Source: Planctomycetota bacterium
GTDB lineage: Bacteria; Planctomycetota; OFTM77
Assembly (NCBI GenBank): GCA_040219065.1
Contig: JAVJTD010000031.1
Coordinates: 32,236 to 96,235 of the forward strand
Reading direction: 5' to 3'
DNA: 64,000 bases
Shown here: piece by piece, positions 10,062 through 34,757 of the stretch
How the letters are laid out: the number at the start of each line of letters is the position of its first letter
How positions within the stretch are numbered: the first letter of the stretch is position 1
The notes under the pieces: model-generated
Told to the model about the DNA's origin: nothing
Seen by the model: the letters and a program-made list of their open reading frames with translations, nothing else
Databases searched by the model: none
Position numbers and translations under genes: made by a program

Positions 10062-10139
10062 CGGGGCGTAGCTCAGCCTGGTTAGAGTGCCTGCTTTGGG
10101 AGCAGGAAGTCGGTGGTTCGAATCCACTCGCCCCGACCA
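10062..10139 (+). tRNA. tRNA-Pro (anticodon UGG)
   Basis: 78-nt cloverleaf. Acceptor stem CGGGGCG/CGCCCCG, anticodon stem CCTGC/GCAGG with loop TTTGGGA, T-arm GGTGG-TTCGAAT-CCACT, discriminator A and encoded CCA. Confidence 0.85.
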
Positions 10140-10258
10140 CCTTCAAGTCTTGCCGGGATCGCTGCTTGGCGTGGTGCGGCTTGGAGTCGTTCGAGAGCGC
10201 CTCGAAGCAACAGCCCGTTCGCGTCGCCTGAGGTCAGGACGACGAACCCGTCCGGAGA

Positions 10259-11032
10259 GTGAGACGGATGGAGACGGCACGGATGGATGAGAGTCCGAAC
10301 CTGCGAGGCCGGGGCGCGAGCCTGCCAAAGATGCTCTTGCTGAGCCTGCTTCCGATCGCGCATGTCTGCTTCTACGTCTCGGTCTATGGTGCCGGCCTGC
10401 GCTTTCTCTCCCTCCACGATGAGATGCCGAGAGCCCATCTCGATGAGCACTTCATTTATGAGGACTCGGCGTTGAGCTTTCTGCACTCAGTCTTCGAATG
10501 GGCAGCGACGATTTGCCTGCTCACGCTGCCCATTCTGTTTGCTCAAGGCTTCTTGATGGCGATGCCGCTTCAAGCCTCACCAGGAGCGGGACGGCGTCGA
10601 TTCGGACGGCTTCTGATCGGGATCAGCCTGGCCATTCCGCTCGCAGGCGTCTTGGGGCTCCGGCTTCCGGCCTTCGGGCCGAGCTTCCTTCACCCGATCT
10701 ACCTGTCAGCTCTGATCTTCCTGGCTGGCGTCGCTGCCACCTTCTCCCTGCCTGCGCTTGGAAGATTGGCTCGAGCTGCCGGGATCCTCCTGACGACGGC
10801 TTCCTTCTACGTTGCCTATCTCCTCATTGCTCCTCTGCCTCTTCCTCCGAGTCGATACCTCGTCATCCTGATTGCTCTCTTTCTCGTGGCCGGTCTGTTG
10901 GCCTTGGAAGGCCTCGGTCTTCAGCCAGAGCGCCGCCGGAGTGCTCTCGGCTATTTGCTCGTTTTCTTCGCGATCGCGTTTCCAGTCATGCTCCGCTCCG
11001 AAGATCCCATCATGGCATGGATGCTGGATTGA
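10259..11032 (+). CDS. integral membrane protein, function unknown
   Basis: Multiple hydrophobic helices with no recognisable catalytic motif. Confidence 0.5.
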   Translation: MRRMETARMDESPNLRGRGASLPKMLLLSLLPIAHVCFYVSVYGAGLRFLSLHDEMPRAHLDEHFIYEDSALSFLHSVFEWAATICLLTLPILFAQGFLMAMPLQASPGAGRRRFGRLLIGISLAIPLAGVLGLRLPAFGPSFLHPIYLSALIFLAGVAATFSLPALGRLARAAGILLTTASFYVAYLLIAPLPLPPSRYLVILIALFLVAGLLALEGLGLQPERRRSALGYLLVFFAIAFPVMLRSEDPIMAWMLD

Positions 11033-11393
11033 GCCCGCTCTGGCGACGTGCGTGCCGACGCAGCCTCGCTGGGAAGCGATGAGAGACCGCGATAGGCAGC
11101 GACGAAGGCGCGTCGACTGAGAGTCGATCCGTGCCGACTCTATACCGGGTCACTTCTTGGCGAAGGACGGCTGGGTGATCCCGCCGGTCTGGAGCGCTCT
11201 GTAACACGCAGGCAAAACCGTCGGCCGGACCTGCGAGACGTCGGCTCGAGCCCGTAAGTTGTCGCGTCCTCCTCACGGACTCGGAGTGAATCGGACTGCG
11301 ATCGAGCTGGCGATCCTGGGCATCTCGAGCTCGAGGCTCCGAGCACGTGCGTCGTCTTCACCCTACCGCCGGACCAATGTGAGAGCTTGCCCC

Positions 11394-12581
11394 ATGAGAA
11401 TCCCATTTGCCTTTCGCAGACGCTCGTCGAGCAGAAGGCCATTGCTTGGCAAGGGCTCGGGCCTGCCCGTCACAGCGCTGCTGTGCGTATGGACGGCTGC
11501 TTGTTCAGGTGGACAGAGAGGTGCCGACCTGGCGCGGGCCTCCTCGGCTCCCCGCGCCGATGCGAGCGTCGCGACCGGCGAGGTCGTCTCCGACATCGGC
11601 GCGAGCTGCTGGATCGTGTTCCAGGATGCCGACGACAACTACTGGTTCGGGTCCGATGGCAACGGTGTCTGCCGCTATGACGGCAAGACGATCACGCGCT
11701 TCACGACCCGGGACGGCCTGACCGGCGACCGTGTGCGCGGAATCGATCAACACGGTCCCTCGGGCGACATCCTCGTCACCTCGCTGAGCGGCATCAGCCG
11801 GTTCGACGGCGAGCGATTCCAGGAGCTGCCCAAGAAGGAGATGACTTCCCCCGACTCGCTCAACGAGCAGGGGTGGCGCCTCGATCCCGACGACGTGTGG
11901 CTTCGTGGTCCGCTGGGGCCGTGTCGGTACGACGGTCAGACGCTCTACGCACTGAGGCTCCCGAAGAGCCCGCGCGAGGACGAATACCTCGCGAGGAATC
12001 CGAATCGGCCTTGGAGTCCCTACGACGTGTGGTGCGTGTACAGGGACCGCAGTGGCCACCTGTGGCTCGGAACGGGATACGTCGGCGTCTGTCGCTACGA
12101 CGGCAAGACGTGGAATTGGATGTACGAGTCGCACATGACCGAGGTGGGCGACGCGTGGTTCGGCTTTCGCTCGGTCATCGAGGACGAGGACGGCGCGTTC
12201 TGGATCTGCAATACGAAGCATCGCTATCGTTTGACGCTGCCCGTCGGTCCCTTGGCCGAGGTAGAAAACCGCTTCGAACAGCTTGCCTACACGCGCGAGC
12301 CCGGAGTCGATCCGGCAGCGCTGGCACCCGGAGAGAGCCCGATCTACTTCCAGTCCGTCGTCGCCGATCCGGCCGGTGAACTGTGGATGGTGACCTACCA
12401 CAAGGGTGTGTGGCGCTACGACGGCCGGAACATGACGCACTATCCGATCATGGACGGCACCGAGGTCGTCCTGCTCTACTCGATCTACCGGGATCGGCAC
12501 GACGGGCTGTGGCTGGGAACGCACGAGCACGGCGTGTACAAGTTCAATGGTGAGTCGTTCGAGCGCTTCGCGCCGAGGTGA
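11394..12581 (+). CDS. lipoprotein with two-component-regulator-propeller-like (Reg_prop/Y_Y_Y-type) beta-propeller repeats
   Basis: Lipobox LLCVWTAACSG. Repeated W/Y-rich blades (GVCRYDGKT, VWRYDGRNMT, HGVYKFNGESF). ATG 11394 was chosen over the ORF-track start 11259. Confidence 0.55.
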   Translation: MRIPFAFRRRSSSRRPLLGKGSGLPVTALLCVWTAACSGGQRGADLARASSAPRADASVATGEVVSDIGASCWIVFQDADDNYWFGSDGNGVCRYDGKTITRFTTRDGLTGDRVRGIDQHGPSGDILVTSLSGISRFDGERFQELPKKEMTSPDSLNEQGWRLDPDDVWLRGPLGPCRYDGQTLYALRLPKSPREDEYLARNPNRPWSPYDVWCVYRDRSGHLWLGTGYVGVCRYDGKTWNWMYESHMTEVGDAWFGFRSVIEDEDGAFWICNTKHRYRLTLPVGPLAEVENRFEQLAYTREPGVDPAALAPGESPIYFQSVVADPAGELWMVTYHKGVWRYDGRNMTHYPIMDGTEVVLLYSIYRDRHDGLWLGTHEHGVYKFNGESFERFAPR

Positions 12582-12705
12582 GCTCGAGCAGAGGGAGGTC
12601 AGCACCGCACGACCCGACCTGGCCCTTCCGCGGGATTGCGGTGACCAGCGACTCTCGCGCACCTGAAAGGCTGACATGCTCTCCCTCCGCTGCGGCCGAG
12701 AAACC

Positions 12706-12776
12706 GGAGTCCTACCGCAGAGGAACGCAGAGAATTGGGAGCTTGCCTAATTCCGGTGGAGCGATGGAGGACCCGG
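12706..12776 (+). repeat. conserved leader element copy 1 (about 75 nt)
   Basis: GGAGTCCTACCGCAGAGG...GGGAGCTTGCCTAATTCCGGTGGAGCGATGGAGG. A second copy lies at 14696..14776 with about 90% identity. It ends with an SD-like GGTGGAG plus ATG. Confidence 0.6.
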
Positions 12777-12919
12777 TGCGGAGGAACACCTCGATGATCG
12801 AGAGAGGCAAAGACACCTCTGCGCTCTCCGCGTCCTCTGCGGTGAAGGAGAGCCCGCGCAATCGCTGTCGCGGGTACGCAACTGCCAGCCCCTCCGGTAC
12901 CGACGCGCACAGTACATGA
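12764..12919 (+). CDS. 51-aa ORF initiated by the ATG embedded in leader element copy 1
   Basis: It uses the same ATG context as the cassette A3 start but does not resemble the A proteins. It may be a leader peptide or non-coding. Confidence 0.2.
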   Translation: MEDPVRRNTSMIERGKDTSALSASSAVKESPRNRCRGYATASPSGTDAHST

Positions 12920-13123
12920 TCGGCTCGAGAGGCACCACCACGGCAGCCTCCGAGCCCGAGCCATGACGCTCCGCCCACCGGGCCCAGGTATCCTGGATCG
13001 ATCACGTGCTTGACGTCGGCGAATGTCTTCGGCACGATTCAATCTCCAAGAACCCTATTGACCACGAGCCCAACGCGTCACGAGGTGTAACGTCCTTCCA
13101 GGAGATTGACCGGAGGTTACCTG

Positions 13124-13552
13124 ATGTCCTGGTTCAAGAAACCAGTCGAGTACCGCTCCTACTCGGACGGCAGCTACGAGATCATCGAGCGCCGCTCCCT
13201 GCTCCGCATCGGCGCCGCCGCCTTGGGGCTGTCGTCTGTGATCGCAGGTGGCGCGTTCGTGGTGCCGAGGATCGTAGCACCTGAAACCGTAGACACCCCT
13301 CAGGCTTCGATCGCCGTCGAAATCATCAAGCGCCGCGATACCAAGGCTGTTTATCAGGTCCTGTCGCAGTACGACCGCCTCGATCGTATTGCCAAGACGG
13401 ATTTCTGGGGTGCCGTGCTCCTGCTCCGGATGACTGACCTCATTCCCTTCGCCAAGAGCCGATTGGAAATCGAGAACGACCGTGCAGTTCGGGATTCCAT
13501 CCAAACGGCGATCAAGGGTCTCGAGCAGCTCTCGACGAACGAAAAGCGCTGA
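13124..13552 (+). CDS. cassette protein A1 (N-terminal TM anchor plus helical domain; paralog family A)
   Basis: GGAGG lies 7 nt upstream. Shares A(V/I)Y(Q/R)(V/L)L(S/T)(Q/H)Y(D/E)(R/H)L(D/E)(R/P)I...(T/S)(D/E)FWG with the ORFs at 13950 and 14763. Confidence 0.55.
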   Translation: MSWFKKPVEYRSYSDGSYEIIERRSLLRIGAAALGLSSVIAGGAFVVPRIVAPETVDTPQASIAVEIIKRRDTKAVYQVLSQYDRLDRIAKTDFWGAVLLLRMTDLIPFAKSRLEIENDRAVRDSIQTAIKGLEQLSTNEKR

Positions 13553-13570
13553 TGGCCTGGAGGTCGAACG

Positions 13571-13879
13571 GTGACACAGTCAAGCGGTTCCGGCCAGGAT
13601 GCGGTCTCCGTCAAGACGATTGGTGATGCAACCGAAGGAGCTGAGTTTTGTGTGCTGGTTTCCGGACCACCCAACGCCCAGCTCCAGATCAGCGTGCTCA
13701 TGACGGCTCCGGGACAATCCGACAACGAGATCAAGGAGCCGGTCAGCGCTGGGGAGTACTGCTTCGACATCCCCGCGGGTTACGGTGGTGGTTCCATGTT
13801 GATCTCCGCCACTTTGCTACCGAAGTCCGAACCTCCGGTGCGGTCACCGTCGAAGACCGTGTTGATCGGCACCTCTTGA
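13571..13879 (+). CDS. cassette protein B1 (about 100 aa, two Cys; paralog family B)
   Basis: GTG start with GGAGG upstream, 19 nt after the A1 stop. Shares CVL(V/I)S.P and E(Y/I)CF motifs with the ORF at 15134. Confidence 0.45.
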   Translation: MTQSSGSGQDAVSVKTIGDATEGAEFCVLVSGPPNAQLQISVLMTAPGQSDNEIKEPVSAGEYCFDIPAGYGGGSMLISATLLPKSEPPVRSPSKTVLIGTS

Positions 13880-13949
13880 GCTTTCAAGAGTGCCTAATCA
13901 TGTCTCAAGGCCACGACGCTGAGGTCCGATCGAGCCAGGCGATAACGCG

Positions 13950-14315
13950 ATGAGCAGAAGCCATATTGCGATCTCCCTAATTGGCCTGGTTGCAGTTGTA
14001 GCCGGTAGCACCTTTGTGCTTCCCAAGATTCCTACAAAGGAGGACTGGAAGCGCGGAGCCCCTCCAGCGATCGCTGTTTTGGCCATCATCGAGAATGGCG
14101 ACCGGGCAGCGATCTACCGACTCCTGACGCAGTACGAGCACCTTGAACGAATCGGTCGCTCCGACTTTTGGGCAGCTGTCACTGCCCTGGGAATGGTTGA
14201 TCTGCTTTCCTTTGCCGAACATCAGCAACTTCACGAGAGCGATTCTATCGTTCTGGAGAATCTGGAACTCGCCATCACTACGCTGAGTGCCATGCAGCGG
14301 ATCGAGGAACGCTGA
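13950..14315 (+). CDS. cassette protein A2 (paralog of A1 and A3)
   Basis: N-terminal TM helix, then the AIYRLLTQYEHLERIGRSDFWAAV motif. Confidence 0.5.
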   Translation: MSRSHIAISLIGLVAVVAGSTFVLPKIPTKEDWKRGAPPAIAVLAIIENGDRAAIYRLLTQYEHLERIGRSDFWAAVTALGMVDLLSFAEHQQLHESDSIVLENLELAITTLSAMQRIEER

Positions 14316-14371
14316 TACGACTGGAGGACACTCGATGCTCCCGAGTGTACCGCCATCGTCAGCCTCTCGCC

Positions 14372-14398
14372 GTCGAAGTCGAAGTCGAAGTCGAAGTC
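14372..14398. repeat. (GTCGAA)4.5 hexanucleotide microsatellite
   Basis: Direct tandem repeat read in the sequence. It occupies the position where a B-type gene would follow A2. Confidence 0.8.
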
Positions 14399-14695
14399 AT
14401 TCGGTGCCGACGGGGCCGCGGATTGCCGAAGAAGCCGAGTATCACGGACATAGGATTCGGAGACGCCTTTCCCGTAGAAGCTCGTTGAATGGGCGATTCG
14501 AGGCACTCGCTCGATTGAGGAGTCGTCGGTGCAAGGAAATGGCTAGGTTTCGGTGCCTCTCCTCATTCACGGCAGGGCCTCGAGGTATGGGCGCATGACT
14601 CTCTCGACTCGGCACACGATCATGCAGTCGCTCCTTTGGCAAGCGCCCGTTCGCCTCGGCGCTCATGGAGTCCCGGCAAGCTGTGCCAGAGGTAC

Positions 14696-14776
14696 GGAGT
14701 CCTACCGCAGAGGTCGCGGAGGAACGCAGAGACATGGGAGCTTGCCTAATTCCGGTGGAGCGATGGAGGGCCCGGG
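14696..14776 (+). repeat. conserved leader element copy 2 (with an 8-nt insertion)
   Basis: Aligns with 12706..12776. It supplies the SD and ATG (14763) of cassette gene A3. Confidence 0.6.
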
Positions 14777-15107
14777 GCTGTTGGGAGTCGCCGCCGGCAC
14801 GGCAGCGGTCGTGAAGACCAAGAGCCCGATGGCGCAATCACCCCAGAATCAAGAAGACCTCAATCGAGCGCCTGGGCTCACTCAGGAGATCGCGACCAAG
14901 ATCCTGGTCGAGCAAGACAGAGACGCCGTGTACCGGATTCTCGGCCACTACGACCGACTTGATCCCATCGAGCGGAGCGAGTTCTGGGGCCTAGCACTCG
15001 CCTTCGAGCTGAAGGACCTCAGGACCTTCGCCGAGATCCCTGCTCGTGACGAGACGAATCCTCTGGTGAAAGCTCGGCTCGAGACGTTTTTCCAGCTGAG
15101 TCGGTAA
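14763..15107 (+). CDS. cassette protein A3 (paralog of A1 and A2)
   Basis: DAVYRILGHYDRLDPIERSEFWGLALAF motif. The start at the leader ATG is a guess; the ORF-track start 14553 is less likely. Confidence 0.5.
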   Translation: MEGPGLLGVAAGTAAVVKTKSPMAQSPQNQEDLNRAPGLTQEIATKILVEQDRDAVYRILGHYDRLDPIERSEFWGLALAFELKDLRTFAEIPARDETNPLVKARLETFFQLSR

Positions 15108-15133
15108 CGAGCCCTTGAGCTGGAGCCAGCACG

Positions 15134-15424
15134 ATGCAACCAGCGAACGGAATCCACTTGATCAGGGTAGAAATCTACCCGGGATCCCCTGAAGCCGGAG
15201 AGGAAGTTTGCGTCCTGATCTCTTCGCCACTCCCAGGTGGATCATTGACCGTACGCGTCACGATCGGAAGCAATCTCGTCCATAATGGCCCACCTCCTCC
15301 AAACAACGAGATTTGCTTCAACACTTCCCCAGACGATCAGGGAAAGGCCTTGGTAGTCTCAGTGAGCGGCTCACCCAGCTCCGGCCTCACGGCCTACGGA
15401 GGAGCCGTCGCGATCCTTCAGTAG
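15134..15424 (+). CDS. cassette protein B3 (paralog of B1)
   Basis: Begins 27 nt after the A3 stop with GGAG upstream. Shares CVLIS.P...EICF motifs with B1. Confidence 0.45.
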   Translation: MQPANGIHLIRVEIYPGSPEAGEEVCVLISSPLPGGSLTVRVTIGSNLVHNGPPPPNNEICFNTSPDDQGKALVVSVSGSPSSGLTAYGGAVAILQ

Positions 15425-15480
15425 CGATTCAAGTCTTCCTGAGGGGTCAACCGGAGTTCGATCCTTGCACGGTGACCCAC

Positions 15481-25808: not shown

Positions 25809-26900
25809 TCACACGGGGGGCCGCCCCTTTTGGCGATGGCTGGCGCCGAGCTGGGTGGCGAGCTCGATGACGCGGGAGCGGATGGCCTGACCCAGGTCGT
25901 CGAGCGGGTGGACCTCATCGGCGACACCGTTGTCGATCACGGCCTGTGGCATCGACGTCGCCACGCAGGTCGCAGGATCCTGCACGAGGATTCGGCCCCC
26001 GCTCCTCTTGATCGAGACGGCTCCACTCGCCCCGTCGCGCCCCATCCCGGTCAGGACGACTCCGATCCCGAAGCTGCCCCAGGTGTCGGCCACGCTTCGG
26101 AAGAGAGGGTCGGCGGCGGGCCGCACGAAGTTCTCCGTCGGACCGTCGTTCAGTGCCAGCTTGGGGCTCTTGCTGGATTCGAGCACGAGGTGTCGATCTC
26201 CCGGAGCGAGGTAGAGCTTGCCCGGCGCGCACTCTTCGCCCTTCTCGGCCAAGCGGACCTCGAGCTCGGTGTCCCTCTGGAGCCGCTCGGCGAAGTTCGA
26301 GAGCATCCAAGCCGGGCCGTGCTGGACCAAGAAGAAGGCGGCAGGGAGGTTGCCACTGAGGCGCGGCAGGATTGCCGAGAGAGCGCCTGGGCCCCCCGTG
26401 CTCGATGCGATGCAGACACCGAGGAAGCTCGGAACGTCGGCGCGTGGAAGACCCGAGGCCGCGTTCTCGAGGCGGCGGCCTGACGAGGGAGGCCGGTCCT
26501 CGAAGGAAGCCGCAGTCGGTTGCGGCAGGCCGAGCTGGTCGGCCAATCGGCGAGCGATCTGATCGGGGGAGCAAGGCTTGGCGATGAAGTCGTTGGCGCC
26601 GGCATCGAGCGCGTGGGTCCTGGCCTCGGCCGAGTCCAAGGACGTCAGCACGGTGAGCCACGGGACCGGATCGATCTCGGCGCGGATGCGCCGGAGCAAC
26701 CGCATGCCGTTGACGCGAGGTAGGATCCAGTCGGTGAGCACGGCGTCGAATCGACCGCGGCGGAGGATCTCCCAGGCCTCGACTCCGTCTTCGGCGACGG
26801 ACACATCGAACCCGGCCCGGCCCAGTCCTCGCTCCAGGATCAAGGCGACGGTGCGATCATCCTCGACGATCAAGATGCGAGCTCTTGAAGACGCCTTCAC
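25809..26900 (-). CDS. cheB: chemotaxis response regulator protein-glutamate methylesterase CheB (copy 1)
   Basis: N-terminal receiver (ILIVEDD...D...K) and C-terminal methylesterase with the GMGRDG motif. Confidence 0.85.
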   Translation of the reverse strand: MKASSRARILIVEDDRTVALILERGLGRAGFDVSVAEDGVEAWEILRRGRFDAVLTDWILPRVNGMRLLRRIRAEIDPVPWLTVLTSLDSAEARTHALDAGANDFIAKPCSPDQIARRLADQLGLPQPTAASFEDRPPSSGRRLENAASGLPRADVPSFLGVCIASSTGGPGALSAILPRLSGNLPAAFFLVQHGPAWMLSNFAERLQRDTELEVRLAEKGEECAPGKLYLAPGDRHLVLESSKSPKLALNDGPTENFVRPAADPLFRSVADTWGSFGIGVVLTGMGRDGASGAVSIKRSGGRILVQDPATCVATSMPQAVIDNGVADEVHPLDDLGQAIRSRVIELATQLGASHRQKGRPPV

Positions 26901-27046
26901 TTTTGCCTTCCGAATCTTCGAATCGGGGACTTCGAGCCGTGAGCGGCCCTGCCGGAACGGTCACTGTCACCGAGTGCCCGGGCCGCCGCCGCCCGGTCGT
27001 CTTGCTCGAGGGCAAGACCTCCAACAAAGAGGGAGGGAGGAGCCGA

Positions 27047-27547
27047 TCACCCGTTGTAGCTTTGTCGAATGATGTGGAGCTGAGCATCCACCGGACCCAG
27101 GCTCATCTGGGTGACCGAATGCTCGTAGGAGCCGTTGAGCTCGATGCGACCGTGCAGGAACACGGGCAGACCTAGCCGGATGCTCGGCTCGCGCTCGATC
27201 AGGCGACCCTTGACGACGCCGGCGAGGATGTTGACGATCTCACCCAAGGCATCGACCATGTCGCTCGGATCGAGCTCGCCGTCCTCGGGCTCCATGCACA
27301 GGAGCGCCCTTGCGATCTCCTCGCAACCCTGGCTTCGAGCGATCACGCCGATCTGGACGGAGACGCCCTCACTGACCATCGGGATGTAGGCACCCGAGAC
27401 CCCATCGGGGAGCTGGTCCTGGTCGTAGACGCGGAACTCCACGTCGGAGTAGCCGAGAGCCGTCGTGGCGAACTCCTCGACGGCCGCCCGAGTGGCATCG
27501 GTCCAGTCCTGGATGGTGACTGGTGTCAGTTCCTGGGGCTCACTCAT
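27047..27547 (-). CDS. cheX: CheX/CheC-family chemotaxis phosphatase
   Basis: CheC-like consensus DALGEIVNILAG. Its 167-aa size and position next to cheY support the call. Its start overlaps the cheY stop. Confidence 0.6.
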   Translation of the reverse strand: MSEPQELTPVTIQDWTDATRAAVEEFATTALGYSDVEFRVYDQDQLPDGVSGAYIPMVSEGVSVQIGVIARSQGCEEIARALLCMEPEDGELDPSDMVDALGEIVNILAGVVKGRLIEREPSIRLGLPVFLHGRIELNGSYEHSVTQMSLGPVDAQLHIIRQSYNG

Positions 27548-27906
27548 GACATCACCGAGTTGAGAGCTTCCTGGAAGGTCTCGACCGTGAACGGCTTGGT
27601 GATGAAGAACATCGCCCCATTGTCGGACGCCAGCTTGTGCATCGCGGGCGTGCCCTCGGAGGTGACGAAGCCGAACTTCACGGTCGTGCCGGCCTCGTTG
27701 AGGTTGCGCAGGAGATCGATGCCGTTCATCTCCGGCATGTTCCAGTCGCACAGGATGAGATCCGGCGTACCATTCTGCACCAGGCCGAGCGCCTCCTTGC
27801 CGTTGGCAGCCTCTTCGACCGAGTGCTCGCCGAAGCCCGCCTGACGCAGGGTCCGCCTGACGATCATTCGCATGGCCTTGCTGTCGTCGACGATCAGGAT
27901 CTTCAT
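27544..27906 (-). CDS. cheY: chemotaxis response regulator CheY
   Basis: 120-aa single receiver domain: MKILIVDDS, phospho-acceptor D in LILCDWNMPEMNG and a conserved K in TKP. Confidence 0.85.
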   Translation of the reverse strand: MKILIVDDSKAMRMIVRRTLRQAGFGEHSVEEAANGKEALGLVQNGTPDLILCDWNMPEMNGIDLLRNLNEAGTTVKFGFVTSEGTPAMHKLASDNGAMFFITKPFTVETFQEALNSVMS

Positions 27907-28039
27907 CGTTCTTCCCCTCGATGATGGGTCTTGGATGTTCGGGCCGAAGCTCGGCCCCGGCGTAGAAGGCCGCCCGAAGGGCGGACCGTGGCATTTTCGA
28001 GTGATCGGATCGCACCTCGGGTGGCGACCCGCGCAATGA

Positions 28040-28864
28040 TCATTCCTTCAAACGAAAACAGGCCGTCTTGACCTCCGGGACGGTCTCGAAGGCCTCTCCC
28101 GCCGCCAGCGTCATCTCTGGTGCCCCCAGGAACAAGAACCCGTCCGGCCGGAGCCGGGGTCGAATGGCCTGCAGGACGTTCCTCTTGGTCTCCGGGCTGA
28201 AGTAGATGAGCACGTTGCGCAAGAAGATGAGATCGAAGGGCTCACCCCGCACCGGGAGATTCAACAGGTTCAAGGACCGGAACGTGACGAGCTCGGTGAC
28301 CTCCGGGTGCAGCGCCCAATCGTTGCCGTCCTTGACGAAATACTTCTGCAGGTACATCGACGGCAGACCACGCCCCACCTCGAGGCTGGAGAAGCGACCG
28401 CGACGAGCACGCTCGATGACCAGCTCCGAGATGTCGGTGGCCAGGATCGAGATGTCCCAGCTCGCAAGGTCATTGAACTTCTCGAGGATCGTCATCGCGA
28501 TGCTGAAGGGCTCTTGTCCCGTCGAGCAGGCCGCGCTCCAGATGCGGATCCTCTTGTCCTCCCGGCGCGACCTTCGCAGCATCGGGAGGATGACCTCGTT
28601 CAAGGCATCGAAGGGCGTTTGGTCGCGAAAGAACGACGTCTCGTGCGTCGCCATCGCATGAACGATGCGATCGGTGACCGGCGAGCTCGGCGTCGATTCG
28701 GCGGCACTCAGCAGCGCATGGGCCGAGTCTTGTCCCGAGGCTCTCGCCAGCTCCGAGAGTCGGAACTCGATCAGGTAGTTCTTCCCCTCGTCGAGCACGA
28801 TTCCCGAGCGCTTTCGAACCAGATCGCGAACGAACTGGTACTGTTGAGCGGACAAAGAGCTCAT
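28040..28864 (-). CDS. cheR: chemotaxis protein methyltransferase CheR (copy 1)
   Basis: CheR N-terminal helical domain plus SAM-MTase core (IWSAACSTGQEPFSIAM, LRNVLIYF). The start is set at MSSLSAQQ; upstream extensions in the ORF track are rejected. Confidence 0.85.
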   Translation of the reverse strand: MSSLSAQQYQFVRDLVRKRSGIVLDEGKNYLIEFRLSELARASGQDSAHALLSAAESTPSSPVTDRIVHAMATHETSFFRDQTPFDALNEVILPMLRRSRREDKRIRIWSAACSTGQEPFSIAMTILEKFNDLASWDISILATDISELVIERARRGRFSSLEVGRGLPSMYLQKYFVKDGNDWALHPEVTELVTFRSLNLLNLPVRGEPFDLIFLRNVLIYFSPETKRNVLQAIRPRLRPDGFLFLGAPEMTLAAGEAFETVPEVKTACFRLKE

Positions 28865-29967
28865 GTGACGGGTCTCGAGGTCGGGTCGATGCGGGGCGCG
28901 GGGCTCGCTCCTCGTCCGGCCTGCGCCGCCCGTGTGAGGCGCGGGGCAACCTGGCCGAGGGGCACGACGTCGTCGGCGAGGCCGGCTTGGGCAACGGCGC
29001 CTGGCATCCCCCACACGATCGAGGTCGCCCGGTCTTGCACGAGGACTCTCGCTCCGGCGGCCTTGAGCGTTTGCGCTCCGAGGAGACCATCCTGTCCCAT
29101 GCCCGTGAGCACGACGCCCAGGACACGGTTTCCGAACACCTCCACCGCCGACTGGAAGAGCACGTCGGCCGCCGGGCGGCAGGAGTTCACCGGCTCGGTG
29201 TCGGTGAGAGCCGTCTCGATCTGGATTCCTTGACGCCGCACCGTCAGGTGCCGTCCGCCGGGCGCGATCCAGATCTGGTTCGGTCCCAGCACCTCGCCGC
29301 CTTGGGACTCCCGCACCTCGAGCGGCGTCTGGGCATCGAGCCTCTGCGCCAGGAGTTGAGTAAAGGTCGGCGGCATGTGCTGCACGATCAGGATCGGGAT
29401 CGGCAGCGTGGCCGGGAATTGGGAGACGATGTCCGCCAGAGCGTTCGGGCCACCGGTGGACACGGCGACGACGATCGCGTCGACCTTCTGCGACGGTGCT
29501 GCCGCCGGGGAAGTCGCATTGAGCGTGGTAGCGGCAACCGCGAGGCCCACTGGACGCAGTCGTCCGCACAGCGCCTTGATCTTGGGAATCAGGTCTTGGC
29601 GGATGCGGTCCATCGCCGTGCTCACGCTGCCGACGTTGGCGGGTTTGGCGACGTAGTCGGAGGCACCGCGCGAGAGCGCCTCGAGCGTGGCAGCGGCACC
29701 GCGCTCGGTGCGCGTGCTGAACATGATCACGGGAAGCCGCGGCCATTTCTTGCGGATCTCGGAGACCGTCTCGAGACCGTCGAGCACCGGCATCTCGACA
29801 TCGAGGATCACGACGTCCGGCTGCACCTGCTCGATACGGGTCAAGCCGACTCTTCCGTTCGGTGCGGTTCCCGCGACCAACAGCTCTGGATCATCCGAGA
29901 GCACGTTGGTCAGCATGCGCCGCACGACGATCGCGTCATCGACGATGAGGACACGCAGCTTGTTCAT
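28861..29967 (-). CDS. cheB: CheB methylesterase (copy 2)
   Basis: Receiver domain (VLIVDDA...VILDVEMPVLDG) plus methylesterase with GMGQDG. Confidence 0.85.
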   Translation of the reverse strand: MNKLRVLIVDDAIVVRRMLTNVLSDDPELLVAGTAPNGRVGLTRIEQVQPDVVILDVEMPVLDGLETVSEIRKKWPRLPVIMFSTRTERGAAATLEALSRGASDYVAKPANVGSVSTAMDRIRQDLIPKIKALCGRLRPVGLAVAATTLNATSPAAAPSQKVDAIVVAVSTGGPNALADIVSQFPATLPIPILIVQHMPPTFTQLLAQRLDAQTPLEVRESQGGEVLGPNQIWIAPGGRHLTVRRQGIQIETALTDTEPVNSCRPAADVLFQSAVEVFGNRVLGVVLTGMGQDGLLGAQTLKAAGARVLVQDRATSIVWGMPGAVAQAGLADDVVPLGQVAPRLTRAAQAGRGASPAPRIDPTSRPVT

Positions 29968-30115
29968 GTCGGATCCTTGCCTGGCTGCACTCGATCTCGC
30001 GCCGCCGGCTGGGCGGTCGCCCCCAGAGACACTGGCGCCGAACCGCGAAGACGACTCGGCACCTGGACCAGCTCCTGGTCTCGAAGAGCCGGCCGGAGCA
30101 GAGCCCTTTTCGCGA

Positions 30116-30598
30116 TCACTTCAAGTAGAGCGAGATCCGACCATCGCTGTATCCGGGCACCGACACCCGGAAGTGGTCGTTGACCTCGGAATCGTCGCAG
30201 AAGTCGACGGTGCGCTCATCGGCCGGATTGCCCGGCGACAGCACCTTCGAGAGGCGGATGCGGGACGGGCCGTGGAACAGGTTCACGCACACGTTGAGCA
30301 CTTCGCTCACGTTCTCGAAGATGTTCTCGGGGATCTGCGAAGTGCGAATGCAGTCTTCCGCCACGCCCGGCGGGATGAGCGCCAGGGCGGCGCCCATGCT
30401 GCTGCTGAGCGGCAGATCGATGACGCAAACGGCCACCGTGTTCTCTTCCGCATCCTGATAGACGGCGACGGTCAGCGGCTGCGCGCAGTCGGGCTCGAGG
30501 GCCGAGCCGCCCGCGTTGACCGTGACCTCCTTGCCCAGGAGGCTGGTCAGCGTCTTACGGACGTCATCCTGATCCGGCAAGCTGTACGAGTCGGACAT
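30116..30598 (-). CDS. hypothetical 160-aa protein within the che operon (weak CheC/CheX-like E-x2-N signature)
   Basis: ENIFENVSEVLNVCVNLF resembles the CheC-family E..N motif. It is not a CheD or CheW match, so function is unassigned. Confidence 0.35.
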   Translation of the reverse strand: MSDSYSLPDQDDVRKTLTSLLGKEVTVNAGGSALEPDCAQPLTVAVYQDAEENTVAVCVIDLPLSSSMGAALALIPPGVAEDCIRTSQIPENIFENVSEVLNVCVNLFHGPSRIRLSKVLSPGNPADERTVDFCDDSEVNDHFRVSVPGYSDGRISLYLK

Positions 30599-30724
30599 GT
30601 TCTGTGTTGCTCCGTTCTCATTCCTGTGCCGAGCAGCCTGAGAGAGGCAGTCTCTGTCCCCCGTCTCGCGCGAGGGGGCGTTCGTCCAAGCTGATCCCTA
30701 CATCGGCCAAGCCAGAAGCCCGGC

Positions 30725-31579
30725 TCAAAGTGGAATCGTCTTCCGTCCTCCGGGAGGTGGCGTCGGCCCCGAGCGCTGGAAGTACCCGGCCTTTCCCAAT
30801 CCGCGCCGCTCGATGGTCGTGTCGAAGCCCTGCAAGCTCTCTCCGTTTCCCAGGAAGAGGGCTCCGTCGGGCCGCAGCACGCTCTCGACCTCGCTCACGA
30901 CTCGGCGCTTCGTATCGATGTCGAAGTAGATCAGCACATTGCGAATGAAGACGATGTCGAACGGTTCGAGCGGAGGAAGCTTCTGCACGAGGTTCATCTG
31001 TCGAAACTCCACCGCCTGGCGCAGGCTCGGCTCGATGCGGAAGCCCCGTCCATCCGGGTGGAAGTACTGTTCCACTTGTTTCTGAGTCAGCCCGCGATGG
31101 ACCTCGACCGCGGTGTACCAGCCTTCGCGCGCCCGCTCGAGGGCACGCTGCGACAGGTCGGTCGCCAGGACCTCGAGCTCCCATCCGAGTAGCTCGGGGC
31201 AGCTCTCGCGAATCGCGATCACCAGGCTGTAGGGCTCCTGTCCCGTCGAGCAGGCCGCGCTCCAGATCCGCAAGCGCCGACGATCCTGACGAGCGCGGAT
31301 CAGGGCGGGAAGCACTTCGTGAGTGAGGACCTGGAAAGGGAACACGTCGCGAAAGAAGAAGGTCTCGTTCGTCGTCATCGCGTCGACGACCCGGCTCTGC
31401 ATGGCGGCCCAGCCGGCATGCAGCCCGTCGAGGATCTCCTCGAGTGAGCGCCCCTCGTCTCGTGCCAAGCGCTCCAGGCGCATCTCGACGAGGTAACTCT
31501 TGTCGGTCGGCAGGAGGATCCCTGAATCCGACTCGACGAGGCGACGGATCACCTCGAAATCGCGTGGCTGGATCGGCAT
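30725..31579 (-). CDS. cheR: CheR methyltransferase (copy 2)
   Basis: IWSAACSTGQEPYSLVIA and IRNVLIYF motifs. The start is set at MPIQPRDFE. Confidence 0.85.
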   Translation of the reverse strand: MPIQPRDFEVIRRLVESDSGILLPTDKSYLVEMRLERLARDEGRSLEEILDGLHAGWAAMQSRVVDAMTTNETFFFRDVFPFQVLTHEVLPALIRARQDRRRLRIWSAACSTGQEPYSLVIAIRESCPELLGWELEVLATDLSQRALERAREGWYTAVEVHRGLTQKQVEQYFHPDGRGFRIEPSLRQAVEFRQMNLVQKLPPLEPFDIVFIRNVLIYFDIDTKRRVVSEVESVLRPDGALFLGNGESLQGFDTTIERRGLGKAGYFQRSGPTPPPGGRKTIPL

Positions 31580-31640
31580 GGTAGACTCCCCTCGGGCACG
31601 CATCCGGCTCGGACGCAGGCCCTCCCCAAGGACACCCGGC

Positions 31641-34217
31641 TCAGATTCGGAACTGATCGACCAGCATTTGCAGCTCGCCGGCGAGGCGTGACAGCTCGGA
31701 GGCGGCTGTCCGATTGGACTCGACTCCCGCGCTCGTGCTCTGCGCCACCCGCGCGACCGCCGTGACGTTCTGCGCGATCTCACCACTTCCGGAAGCCGCC
31801 TCGGAGATGTTGCGGCTGATCTCGTTGGTCGTGGCCGTCTGCTCCTCGACCGCGCTGGCGATCGTGTTGGAGATGTCGTTGATGCGATCGATGACCGAGC
31901 TGATCTCCTCGATCGCCTCGACGGCGCTCTTGGTATCGCCCTGGATCGTCTCGATCTTCTGGCTGATGTCCTCGGTCGCCTTGGCCGTCTCCTTGGCGAG
32001 CTCCTTGACCTCGTTCGCGACGACGGCGAACCCCTTGCCGGCTTCACCGGCGCGGGCGGCCTCGATCGTCGCGTTGAGGGCGAGCAGGTTGGTCTGCTCC
32101 GCGATCGAAGTGATCACCTTGATGACGTTGCCGATCTCGGTGCTGCTCTCGCCCAGCTTGGCCACGGTCATGTTGGTGGTCTGGGCGACGCGCACGGCGG
32201 CCGTCGCGACGCGAGCGGCCTCGTTCGAGTTCTCGGCGATCTCGCGGATGCTCGCCGACATCTCCTCGACACCGGTCGCCACCGACTGCACGTTGTGCGA
32301 CACCTGGCTCGCCGCGCCCGAGACGAGCTCGGCCTGGCTGCAGGTCTCGTTCGCGTTGTCGCCGATCTGAGCGCTCACCTGCTCGAGGGAGCTTCCCGCC
32401 GCCGCCAAGGCGCCCGAGTTCTGAGCGATGGAGCCCAGGCTGGCGCGCAGCCTTTGGAAGAAGCGTCCGAGCGCCGCCCCGATCTGACCGATCGCATCGT
32501 CGCCATCCATCGGCACGGTCTGGGTCAAGTCACCCGACTCGGCCGCATTGACGACATCGAGGATGCTGTCGACTCGTCGGTGCAACGCCTCGGCCGCTAT
32601 GCGCTCACGCTCGCTGGCCGTGCGCAGCTCTTCTTGGCGGCGCAGCTCGTCAGTGACCTCCTGCCAGATCAACATCCGGCCAAGGTCGCGACCCTCCCGG
32701 TCGGTGACCGTCGAACCGAAGACACGGAAGGCATCGTGGTCGAGCTGAATGACGGTGTCCAAGCTGTCGTCGCCGTCGCCCGCGACCCAGGCCTCGAGGC
32801 TTCCGGCGCGATGGCAGAAGTCGTCGAAGCTCGCCCGCCCCGACTGCAGCGCGCTCGCGGTGAACATCGATCCGTGAGCATCGGCGAGCTGACGGAGTGC
32901 CCGGTTCGAGAAGCGAATGCGTCCCGAGGAGTCGAGCAGCAGAGTCGGCGTCGGCGAGAACTGCACCATCGCCGAGACGCGCTCGACCTCTTGGCGCTGG
33001 CCGGCGAGCTCGGACCAGTCGACCCGCTCGGAGCCGAGGGCCGAGCGAATATCGGTGAGCGCCTCGTCCAGCGCGCTCGCCATCGAGCCGATCTCGTTCG
33101 AGCTCTTCTTCGAGAGGCGGCTGCTCAGGTCACCGCCCCGGAGGCGGTCGACGGCCTCGCGAATCTCGCGCACCGGCTGGGTGATTCCGTTCGAGACGAA
33201 TACACCGGCGCCGACGAGCAAGACGAGCAGGACAAGGCCCACCGTGGCGAGCGACGACCGCAGGGAAGAGATGGAGGCGAAGGCCTCCTCGGCGTCCTGC
33301 CGGACGAGGACCGACCAGCCGAGGCCATCGAAGTCGCCGAAGCCCTCGGAGTGGGCAAAGCCGACGATGTGCTGCGATCCTCCCGGTGCGTCCTCGAGCT
33401 TGAAGCCGGCCTTGCCCTGCACCGCGAGCTGGGCCGCTTCGATGCCGAGACGGGTCGGGTTCACGTCACCGAGGATCATCGCGGCATCGAGATCATCGAC
33501 GACGAAGCCCTCGCGATTCAGCACTTGAGTGTGCGCCGACCCGAATCCGTGCGAGGCGAGCTGCTTGCGGAAGTCGGCCGCGATGTCGCGCACGACAACC
33601 GCCTGTGAGGCGCAGGCGAGCCAGACGCGCGAGACGGCGCCACCGGGGGCGTAGACCGGAGCGGCGATCTGGACCACCAGGCCCCGACCACCCGTCGCTC
33701 GCGCGACCGCCTTGTCGGCGACCAGATCCGACATCCACCAGCCAGCGCTTCGCGGCAAGCGAAGCCCTTTCTCGAACCACTCTTGGCCTTGGACGCTCGT
33801 GCCGACCAAAGAGGCCGCATCGAGCGGACGGCCATCGTGGTCGAGCTCGCTGGTCGCGAGGACCTTGCCGTCGCGGTCGGCGACCAGCACGAGGTCATAG
33901 CTCGGATCGAGGAGCGACAGCTCTGCCGCGGCCGCGGACAGCTCCTGCGGAGTCTCCAGGCCGGTAGAATGGGCCGCCAAGGACTCGACGAGCCGGGCGC
34001 GGTCCCTGAGCCCGCGATCCATCAGATCGAGCATTGAGACCGCCAATCCCTCGAGGCGCTCGCCCGAGTCCTCGATCAGCGCCTCCCGGGCCCGGCCCAT
34101 GGAGAGCACGGCGACGACGACCGCCGGCACCATCCCCAGGACCAGGAACGAGAAGATCAGCCTCGAGCGCAAGCTCGTCAGGATCGACCCGGAAACACCT
34201 TCACTCGACTTGATCAT
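31641..34217 (-). CDS. methyl-accepting chemotaxis protein with a large periplasmic sensor, HAMP and additional cytoplasmic modules
   Basis: N-terminal TM, a roughly 300-aa extracytoplasmic region and a second TM. HAMP ([18 protein letters not shown]) and a canonical MCP signalling domain ([31 protein letters not shown]). Confidence 0.85.
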
Positions 34218-34309
34218 TGCCCTCGCGACCTTCCTCGCTACTTCGTTCCCGCACCCATGGGGGGCAACTCGTGAATCGTGTCTTCTTCTCTTCGTCCGAT
34301 GGACTGCTG

Positions 34310-34756
34310 TCACCCGAGAAACGAGCCGGCACCGCAGAGGATCGCCCGCTCGACATCGAGGATCAGGAGTAGTCGACCGTCGAGCTTGTAAGCTCCTCGG
34401 ATCAGGTCCCTCGCCTCGCCTTGCAGGGTCTCCGGCGGCCTCTCGAAGGCCTCCTCCTCGACCTCGAGCACGTCGCCGATCTCATCGACGAGAAAGCTCA
34501 CGGCGCTGTCGCCGGTTCGGATCACGACGTTCATCGGAAGCTGGCCTTGGGGGCGGGGCGACAGGCCGAGGCGTCTCCGAAGATCGATCGCGGTCACGAT
34601 CTGGCCCCGCAGGTTGATCAGCCCCTCGACGACCCCGGGTGCCAAGGGCACGTGAGTCATCTGCTGGTAGCGGATCACCTCCTGGACCTTCAGCACCTCG
34701 ACGCCAAAGAACAGGCCGTCGAGGCAGAACGTGCAGAACTGCTGGGCTTCGGTCAT
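34310..34756 (-). CDS. cheW: CheW coupling protein
   Basis: 148-aa single CheW-like domain ([21 protein letters not shown]). Confidence 0.85.
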
Positions 34757-34757
34757 C

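Follow-up and report, generated by a model that had tools for sequence, protein, structure and literature searches.

The gene array that follows tRNA-Pro(UGG) in this 64-kb stretch of DNA (hereafter the window) is composed of cassettes of two small genes, A and then B. The A/B pair is real and restricted to a planctomycete lineage, and it is the whole cassette that evolves as a unit, both genes duplicating and diverging together. To account for this arrangement, it is tentatively proposed that A and B might form heterodimers that use the Tat pathway for export, B travelling as a hitchhiker on A, a mechanism that we regard as possible rather than probable. The features of the locus, by position in the window, are as follows.

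10062..10139, + strand: tRNA-Pro(UGG), anticodon tgg (ARAGORN; Rfam RF00005, 65.7 bits)
10259..11032, + strand: M, a multi-pass membrane protein of a family unplaced by sequence
11259..12581, + strand: Reg_prop beta-propeller gene (PF07494, E 1.8e-14)
12705..12779, + strand: intergenic repeat of ~85 nt, copy 1, inside a long hairpin (12710-12845)
13124..13552, + strand: A1, a type-I A of full length (142 aa, in agreement with the NCBI record)
13571..13879, + strand: B1, a type-I B, 18 nt past A1 and with its own GGAGG
13950..14315, + strand: A2, an A subtype with a short N-terminus and a plain hydrophobic anchor
14695..14778, + strand: intergenic repeat of ~85 nt, copy 2, which contributes the annotated ATG and first five codons of A3
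14763..15107, + strand: A3, a type-II A truncated at its 5' end, with the helical domain intact
15134..15424, + strand: B2, a type-II B, 26 nt past A3

The order given in a preliminary description of this DNA (tRNA-Pro, a membrane-protein gene and a propeller gene, then the array) is confirmed by ARAGORN, Rfam and PF07494, and three A and two B paralogs lie 3' of these genes. The three A proteins align pairwise at 36-38% identity across about 100 aa, and the motifs quoted in that description are invariant columns of this alignment. The two B proteins share 25% identity (BLASTP E 6e-4), which is weak on its own, but a family profile matches both of them (E 2e-41 and 6e-31) and additional B relatives bridge the two sequences. 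The relationship of the two B proteins is thereby confirmed. A profile search revealed no further copy of either gene in the 64-kb window. As first noted, A and B both resist placement by sequence, with no matches in Pfam, NCBIfam, PADLOC or PHROG. Both are very narrow families, with 14 representatives of A in 1.84 billion proteins and 8 clusters of B in 5.8 billion, and all the named sources are Planctomycetota MAGs. For B2, the protein database lists no NCBI source.

Six related loci, together with the window, provide nine cassettes holding both genes, and the order is A then B in all nine, with B starting 12-96 nt past A or overlapping it. Pairwise identities of A and B co-vary (Mantel r=0.65, p=1e-4), so that the tandem array of paralogous two-gene cassettes first described here is well supported. 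This covariation is not uniform along A. B identity follows that of the A helical domain, with r=0.61 in a set of 15 pairs and 0.77 in a set of 36, and does not follow that of the n-region (r=0.26). Between subtypes, the n-region of A is 73% identical, in contrast to 33% for the helical domain and 20-27% for B. The co-divergence of the two proteins may nevertheless reflect a shared duplication history alone, with no need for physical contact. In the window, A copies 1 and 3 are indeed each followed by B, but the translational coupling previously ascribed to them is not borne out, as the genes do not overlap, being separated by 18 and 26 nt, and each B has its own GGAG(G). The A and B genes are tightly operonic, which does not imply coupling.

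Comparison with related genomes has shown that the array is syntenic in a second MAG, OFTM77, where a nucleoside symporter, a sulfatase, an M-family membrane protein and an A/B array are found together in the absence of the tRNA. Window cassette 3 and the OFTM77 cassette are 66/61% identical in A/B, while window cassette 1 and that of locus L003 are 57/53% identical. Orthologous cassettes are overall 50-66% identical, inside the 45-79% range of the flanking housekeeping genes, which argues against rapid turnover. According to these identities, the subtypes are old orthologous lineages across genomes and not fast-turnover variants.

These data bear on the initial suggestion that the pairs are toxin/effector-immunity or surface-variation cassettes in a tRNA-linked variable island. 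Like polymorphic toxin/immunity arrays (CDI, Rhs, T6SS orphan immunity), the locus contains tandem diverged small pairs and truncated orphans. Unlike them, it has no toxin domain, delivery system or mobile-element signature, and its subtypes are orthologous between genomes. Searches of Pfam, NCBIfam, PADLOC and PHROGs detected no toxin or enzyme domain in A or B, nor is there any conserved residue of catalytic type. Rhs, VgrG, CdiA/B, T6SS and T7SS components are absent from the scanned window ORFs and from the related loci, and no invertase was found among those window ORFs. A tRNA-integrated genomic island is likewise unsupported: the scanned ORFs include no integrase, as was first noted, and the last 16-25 nt of tRNA-Pro have no second copy in the 64 kb that could represent an att repeat. 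The window ORFs covered by the Pfam scan belong to metabolism, chemotaxis and regulation, and the array is flanked by housekeeping genes. Together with the synteny in OFTM77, the lack of an integrase, an att repeat and a toxin domain leaves the effector/immunity idea unsupported. We consider it very unlikely, the tRNA-linked variable region included, and the tRNA is a mere landmark outside the cassette system.

One basis for the proposed Tat export is the N-terminus of A. Full-length A proteins present a 22-residue N-terminal extension, an RRS[F/L]L[R/K] motif, a segment of 19-23 residues and a HEAT-like alpha-solenoid of ~80 residues. The extension is unusually conserved and the hydrophobic segment is only moderately hydrophobic. 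In A1, this layout corresponds to the conserved n-region MSWFKKPVEYRSYSDGSYEIIE, the motif RRSLLR, the hydrophobic segment and a five-helix HEAT-like domain; its start is most likely the ATG at 13124 (MSWF..., with GGAGG 7 nt upstream) rather than the TTG at 13106. In 10 of the 11 full-length A proteins, xRRS[FL]L precedes a stretch of 19-23 uncharged residues. A1 reads ERRSLLR at the n/h boundary, in agreement with the Tat consensus (S/T)-R-R-x-F-L-K, and distant members carry RRRSFLKL, a textbook Tat motif, while A2 and A3 lack it. The 19-23 residues that follow have Kyte-Doolittle 19-mer means of 1.5-2.4 and also agree with a Tat h-region, which requires at least 13 uncharged, moderately hydrophobic residues. 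In several members, the Pfam TAT_signal, TIGR01409 and Rieske Tat-anchor models align to this segment (residues 18-45), always below their cut-offs. The best scores are 19.5 for PF10518 (P0004; cut-off 22.7 bits) and 15.6 for TIGR01409 (cut-off 16.7 bits), while UCR_Fe-S_N matches two A proteins weakly (17.8 and 10.6 bits; cut-off 24). A1 is matched by none of the Tat models, no member of the family attains a gathering score, and no Tat genes were detected in the window ORFs that the Pfam scan covered.

These sub-threshold matches are also what would be expected if A were an ordinary Sec/YidC signal-anchor, in which the arginine pair is the usual positive charge preceding the helix and B is a co-expressed cytoplasmic protein that has its operon and its function in common with A but is not co-exported. 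This interpretation, which we consider rather unlikely, is also consistent with the A2-type copies, which manage without the arginine pair, and with the absence of a cofactor signature. It does not readily explain why RRS[FL]L[RK] persists in 10 of the 11 full-length A proteins despite their deep divergence, the exact RRSFLK included, or why the divergence of B parallels that of the predicted exterior part of A and not that of its sole cytoplasmic part. Moreover, B occurs only alongside A proteins of the twin-arginine type, A3 having lost its motif by truncation. The three A copies whose architecture omits the extension (A2, P0017 and P0019) are all without a B.

The confident AF2 models of both proteins suggest folds without enzymatic features. 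A is modelled as paired antiparallel helices forming a HEAT-like alpha-solenoid; by sequence, Pfam HEAT-family models give no match even at E up to 10 and a profile search of PDB sequences returned nothing. PBS-lyase-type HEAT-like proteins (deoxyhypusine hydroxylase, bilin lyases, alphaRep binders) are the closest in architecture, but the modelled A domain lacks their metal-binding His-Glu pairs, is much shorter and would stand behind an export-type signal. B is modelled as an FN3/macroglobulin-like (MG) beta sandwich of ~100 residues, with seven strands in B1. By sequence it is unmatched to any FN3, MG or Ig-like family, and it differs from these domains in being a free-standing single domain without a signal peptide and in carrying its two invariant cysteines (Cys27 and Cys64 in B1) on the second and fifth strands of the model instead of the Ig B-F position. 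The invariant residues of both proteins are only structural, and the folds are predicted to be generic, non-enzymatic binder scaffolds. HEAT-like and FN3-like scaffolds are those that have been engineered as alphaReps and monobodies. It is assumed here that the cysteines form a disulfide, which would place B outside the cytoplasm. B1 has no signal peptide, and neither a hydrophobic N-terminus nor a longer in-frame upstream ORF that could supply an export signal was found for the B proteins.

A signal-less B could alternatively be a cytoplasmic chaperone of the NapD/TorD kind, which binds the N-terminal extension of A, proofreading A or retaining it until export, and stays inside. In favor of this role, B is confined to A copies of the extension-bearing type, and conservation of the extension greatly exceeds that of a normal signal n-region. 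However, the subtypes share 73% identity in that extension, while B falls to 20-27% and follows the helical domain. A common binding site should be matched by a conserved B surface, and the divergence of B therefore counts against a chaperone. The invariant paired cysteines of an FN3-like sandwich also suit an oxidizing compartment better. A chaperone function for B thus seems distinctly unlikely.

According to the hitchhiking model, A and B would fold and pair in the cytoplasm through the A helical domain. The Tat translocase would carry the pair across the cytoplasmic membrane using the signal of A, with B as the signal-less hitchhiker, and the probably uncleaved signal-anchor would tether the pair at the outer face of that membrane, where the two binder scaffolds together would function in recognition or as an adaptor. 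The near-invariant n-region would be recognized by one factor that serves every cassette, either the translocase or a dedicated escort. A2-type copies, with a plain anchor and no arginine pair, would be inserted by Sec/YidC, which presumably explains why they have no B, since this route cannot carry a partner.

Known Tat hitchhiker pairs are nearly all large cofactor-bearing redox enzymes. A and B, in contrast, are binder-type scaffolds of 100-140 aa with no sign of a cofactor motif. In addition, the n-region of A is long and near-invariant, the pair occurs in several diverged paralogous cassettes, and its export is putative. The genetic arrangement is nonetheless the same. Hitchhiker export is established, as are Tat-dependent membrane proteins anchored at the N- or C-terminus, and in pairs such as E. 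coli HybO/HybC (hydrogenase-2), DmsA/DmsB and PaoABC one subunit holds the twin-arginine signal, as A would, while an adjacent, co-transcribed partner without a signal is exported through the complex, as B would be (PMC10924467, PMC4273604). B is indeed a signal-less protein encoded beside a signal-bearing one. The Rieske Fe-S subunit (UCR_Fe-S_N) also resembles A in its arginine pair and hydrophobic segment, possibly an uncleaved signal anchor, although A lacks the Rieske domain and the Fe-S ligands. In a broader version of the model, the n-region and the arginine pair would define a dedicated export and anchoring route by which this lineage displays a small set of exchangeable binders, each made of two scaffolds, on the outer face of the cytoplasmic membrane, diversified by paralogy for different ligands, and this would be the first cofactor-free family of Tat hitchhikers; we regard this extension as highly doubtful.

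If the mechanism holds, Tat hitchhiking, known from cofactor-bearing redox enzymes, would extend to small binding modules without a cofactor, the n-region of a signal peptide would itself carry information (given its conservation relative to the mature domains), and two protein families that lack annotation could be defined. If it does not, what is left is a pair of hypothetical proteins specific to a lineage of uncultured Planctomycetota, and the interest is purely local.

Not all copies in the window appear to be functional. The N-terminal transmembrane anchor attributed to every A is present in A1 and A2, but in A3 the hydrophobic segment is truncated to 13 residues (best Kyte-Doolittle 19-mer 0.98, versus 1.5-2.5 in other A proteins). 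A3 lacks the n-region, the arginine motif and half of that segment; its homology to the family begins at profile position 30 (about nt 14772), the sequence upstream having been replaced, whereas its orthologs P0005 and P0014 are full length and carry RRS[FL]L. As the targeting region has been lost, A3/B2 is probably disabled, and A1-B1 would be the only intact cassette. It could further be argued that the array is largely a graveyard, in which only A1-B1 works, A2 and A3/B2 being duplicates in decay that have no role, and the tandem layout results merely from duplication and drift. The loss of the A3 N-terminus to the repeat fits this idea, as do the GC3 values of A2 (0.60, the minimum of the array) and B2 (0.62) and the OFTM77 array, which contains a B remnant cut to 30 aa and one A running into repeat-derived sequence. 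Nevertheless, another genome encodes intact A2-type ORFs, one as a solo gene (P0019) and one within an A-B-A'-A-B array of the same order (P0017), and the A3 and B2 domains are intact, with the 66/61% identity to their orthologs already mentioned. An array composed mostly of decaying copies is thus unlikely.

Regarding the remaining elements, M has no matches in Pfam, NCBIfam, PADLOC or PHROG, and it is homologous to the 284-aa membrane protein that adjoins the A/B array in OFTM77 (BLASTP E 1e-11), an association that may represent a functional link or plain synteny. The two copies of the intergenic repeat are 92-100% identical, with a 9-nt indel, and the hairpin around copy 1 has a fold z of -2.2. 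The beta-propeller lipoprotein of the preliminary description is a propeller by PF07494; it is probably a secreted protein or a lipoprotein, the latter being plausible with a non-canonical candidate lipobox (…VWTAAC…), and its true start is likely an internal ATG near 11394. The recurring GVCRYDG motif of this protein gives rise to DNA repeat family D2. The propeller gene is not conserved beside the OFTM77 array, and at locus L001 its position is occupied by Spherulin4.

The source of the window is a 127-kb contig of a Planctomycetota MAG carrying the NCBI locus tags RL885_01595-01610. The region of interest contains a run of five small genes, separated from an upstream Reg_prop propeller gene by 524 nt of non-coding DNA, and its far end is occupied by a convergent gene for an 878-aa FG-GAP/VCBS protein. 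Three of the small genes encode a protein with a helical domain (A), and two encode its putative partner (B); an A gene followed by a B gene is referred to here as a cassette.

Features of the region (positions within the window)
10062-10139, plus strand: tRNA-Pro(tgg)
10259-11032, plus strand: M, multi-pass membrane protein, no family match
11259-12581, plus strand: Reg_prop beta-propeller (PF07494, E 1.8e-14)
12705-12779 (upstream of A1) and 14695-14778: copies 1 and 2 of an 85-nt repeat, 92-100% identical with one 9-nt indel, two copies in 64 kb
13124-13552, plus strand: A1, small gene of the array
13571-13879, plus strand: B1, small gene of the array
13950-14315, plus strand: A2, small gene of the array
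14763-15107, plus strand: A3, small gene of the array
15134-15424, plus strand: B2, small gene of the array

The start of A1 is most likely the ATG at 13124 (MSWF...), which has a GGAGG 7 nt upstream and agrees with the NCBI call and with all relatives. Both B genes are operonic with A without overlap in the window, starting 18 nt (B1) and 26 nt (B2) past the A stop codon, each with its own GGAG(G). Of the translational coupling proposed in the preliminary description, the tight operonic order stands. The array shows a real drop in GC (0.58-0.60 versus about 0.65) and in GC3 (0.60-0.76 versus 0.80-0.88). An Rfam scan of the region matched the tRNA alone, and a promoter/terminator scan gave no signal exceeding shuffles. 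B2 (P0008) has a Logan assembly as its one listed source and no NCBI source, whereas A1, B1, A2 and A3 are present in the NCBI MAG record, in which B2 is probably a gene left unannotated. Further along the window, a chemotaxis cluster (25809-37205; two CheB methylesterase/receiver genes, a CheX-domain protein, a dCache-domain MCP and CheA) is ordinary chromosomal context.

The three A proteins share 36-38% pairwise identity, and the motifs by which they had been recognized as paralogs are invariant columns of the alignment. Direct identity between B1 and B2 is just 25% (BLASTP E 6e-4); with a profile of eleven family sequences, both are recovered (E 2e-41 and 6e-31) and the region gives no other hit. 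When every family member was used as a tblastn query on the 64 kb, the only matches were these five genes. According to these data, the original observation of A and B paralogs is correct. That neither family could be placed also holds, since Pfam, NCBIfam, PADLOC and PHROGs give no match for A, B or M, and A and B profile searches against PDB sequences give none either. When 1.84 billion representative proteins were searched exhaustively by HMMER, using an A profile of six sequences, 14 proteins were returned, and word-indexed searches of 5.8 billion clusters returned 6 A clusters and 8 B clusters; all stay within the same narrow lineage and offer no bridge to an annotated family. Among GTDB species-representative genomes, the MAG OFTM77, which originates from an Oslofjord subsea-tunnel biofilm (PMC10732223), is the only one with matches. 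Three further copies lie on other contigs of the window's own MAG (RL885_22525, _33230, _03800), and the remaining sources are short contigs, a handful in all, belonging to three further samples. A and B therefore constitute a real, lineage-restricted and unannotated two-gene cassette family.

Wherever a related contig carries an A gene of the long N-terminus type, a B gene comes next, after a spacer of 12-96 nt or with a 16-nt overlap. OFTM77 holds two arrays, one reading ...A-B-A-B-A-(B remnant) and another, on a separate contig, A-B-A'-A-B-A..., where A' is a copy with a short N-terminus; the latter order is that of the window. The A-A and B-B identity matrices of nine cassettes are correlated (Mantel r=0.65, p=1e-4), a co-divergence that may reflect shared duplication history alone. 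Two B subtypes (GEYCF..PAGYGGG and MQPANGIH..NGPPP) accompany two A subtypes. The closest relative of window cassette 3 (A3-B2) is in OFTM77 (A 66%, B 61%) and that of cassette 1 (A1-B1) is on contig L003 (A 57%, B 53%); therefore, the subtypes are older than the split of the genomes.

The surroundings are also shared, with identities between the two MAGs of 79% for a nucleoside symporter, 45% for a sulfatase and 34% for M. Despite its low GC and GC3, the locus is ancestral. In OFTM77, symporter, sulfatase, M-family protein and A/B array occur together, in an order rearranged by inversions and with no tRNA. The idea of a tRNA-linked variable region is not borne out, as no att repeat was found and OFTM77 has the locus without the tRNA. 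It is likewise very improbable that these are effector/immunity or surface-variation cassettes, as the tandem paralogs had first been read: the proteins hold no toxin or enzymatic domain, the window ORFs scanned include no delivery system, invertase or integrase (the last as already reported), and the subtypes persist as orthologs between genomes.

M-family proteins adjoin the array in both MAGs (window 10259-11032; L001 2025-2879 and 1518-1958) and share the motif V(Y/W)GAGLRF..(L/I)H...P, duplicated inside the OFTM77 protein; the family could be a third component or mere synteny. In all three type-I cassettes (window 13550-13573; L003 2725-2748; L010 489-590), B lies in the frame of A past a single TGA, and the spacers (18, 18 and 96 nt) hold no second stop, so readthrough would yield an A-B fusion. 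This candidate was rejected because 4 of 9 cassettes are in frame where chance expects 3, which is not significant.

The most unusual single feature of the family is the strongly conserved N-terminal stretch of A (n-region) that precedes its twin-arginine (RR) motif. Full-length members start with MSWFKKPVxYRSYSDGxYEIIERRS(F/L)LRIG and distant ones with MSWEYRRWADGRVEI(I/V)RRRSFLKL; 10 of 11 full-length members show xRRS[FL]L with a run of 19-23 uncharged residues after it, which is the twin-arginine consensus. Average identity between subtypes is 73% in the n-region, 33% in the helical domain and 27% in the B partners. B identity tracks that of the helical domain (r=0.61 over 15 pairs, 0.77 over 36 pairs), not that of the n-region (r=0.26). 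The RR segment is matched by Pfam TAT_signal in 4 of 8 tested members (best 19.5 bits, below the cut-off of 22.7), by TIGR01409 in three (best 15.6, cut-off 16.7) and by a Rieske Tat-anchor model in two, below threshold. As all these scores are sub-threshold and A1 is matched by none of the three models, it is the motif, not a model score, that places A among the Tat signals. A carries a probable Tat-type signal, and B carries none.

A JGI metagenome scan yielded only three low-GC phage-like loci, in which the match to A is confined to its first 48 residues; they were set aside as pre-selected by the search pattern (YSDG[TS]YEI). They encode a 108-aa protein (L004 6068-6394, L006 9986-10312, L005 2627-2767) with the N-terminus DWLKKPVRAHTYSDGSYEIQENRP, which has 14 of 21 residues in common with the n-region of A (SWFKKPVAYRSYSDGTYEIIERRS); an additional W.KKPV match lay outside the pattern and is thus unexplained by selection. 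The protein matches PHROG 24554 (unknown function) and no Pfam family.

Three A copies with a short N-terminus lack the RR and have a plain, more hydrophobic anchor: A2, P0017 inside an OFTM77 array, and P0019, a solo gene of OFTM77. No B gene follows any of them. A3, with a B gene and no RR of its own, is an apparent exception; its orthologs P0005 and P0014 keep the full RR extension, which in A3 has been replaced by other sequence, repeat included. In the stretch L012 8246-10378 (contig JAJDCO010000133.1), P0019 is the sole copy observed beside mobile-element genes. It adjoins a recombinase/type I restriction island, with three neighbouring genes on the minus strand (a weak Phage_integrase match in the closest) and a type I restriction-modification system, and is followed by a heparinase.

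AlphaFold2 with the family alignment predicts the C-terminal domain of A as five helices (pLDDT > 90 across roughly residues 70-140); the model of B is a seven-strand sandwich (mean pLDDT 83). On these models, the cassette family is made from two common binder folds (HEAT/FN3). B has two invariant cysteines, an invariant glycine and, two positions ahead of the second cysteine, a glutamate that is nearly invariant; its N-terminus is not hydrophobic, and it has no in-frame start further upstream. As the likeliest of several readings, though still a tentative one, we propose that B pairs with the helical domain of A, that the folded pair would be exported by the Tat pathway on the signal of A with B as a hitchhiker, and that it would stay tethered by this signal-anchor to the outer face of the cytoplasmic membrane. 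The near-invariant n-region might then be read by some factor common to all cassettes. The pair is best regarded as a form of a familiar arrangement in which one subunit carries a signal and the other does not. Among redox enzymes, both export by hitchhiking and Tat-dependent membrane proteins with a single helix are established (PMC10924467, PMC4273604). The main weaknesses of the Tat reading are the sub-threshold model scores, the lack of a cofactor rationale, the possible origin of the co-divergence in duplication history alone, and the putative status of a disulfide between the B cysteines. A plain Sec/YidC anchor for A, with B in the cytoplasm, is somewhat unlikely; the chief argument against it is that RRSFL[KR] is deeply conserved and that B is tied to the presence of RR. 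B could also be a cytoplasmic escort of the signal peptide of A, which fits its presence and absence; however, the n-region is constant while B diverges along with the helical domain, and this function appears distinctly unlikely.

A3 is truncated at its 5' end, homology to the family profile beginning at profile position 30 (about nt 14772). Its hydrophobic segment retains 13 residues (best Kyte-Doolittle 19-mer 0.98, versus 1.5-2.5 in other A proteins), and thus the N-terminal anchor initially ascribed to every copy is missing from A3. The annotated ATG and first five codons of A3 fall within copy 2 of the 85-nt repeat. Decay is thus partly true of A3; that the array is mostly decayed is nevertheless unlikely, as intact A2-type copies are conserved elsewhere. 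Searches at E < 1 found no N-terminal A remnants upstream of A2 or A3 and no decayed B remnant downstream of A2. Copy 1 of the repeat lies within a long hairpin (12710-12845) with the inverted arm ACCGCAGAGG..GCGGAG at 12826-12843. A different repeat of ~300 nt flanks one cassette in OFTM77 (L011, about 1150-1450 and 2284-2707). Finally, A2 and A3 are separated by 447 nt that hold a hexanucleotide microsatellite, (GTCGAA) x 4.5 at 14367-14395; a probably spurious ORF on the minus strand reads it as DFDFDFDFD.
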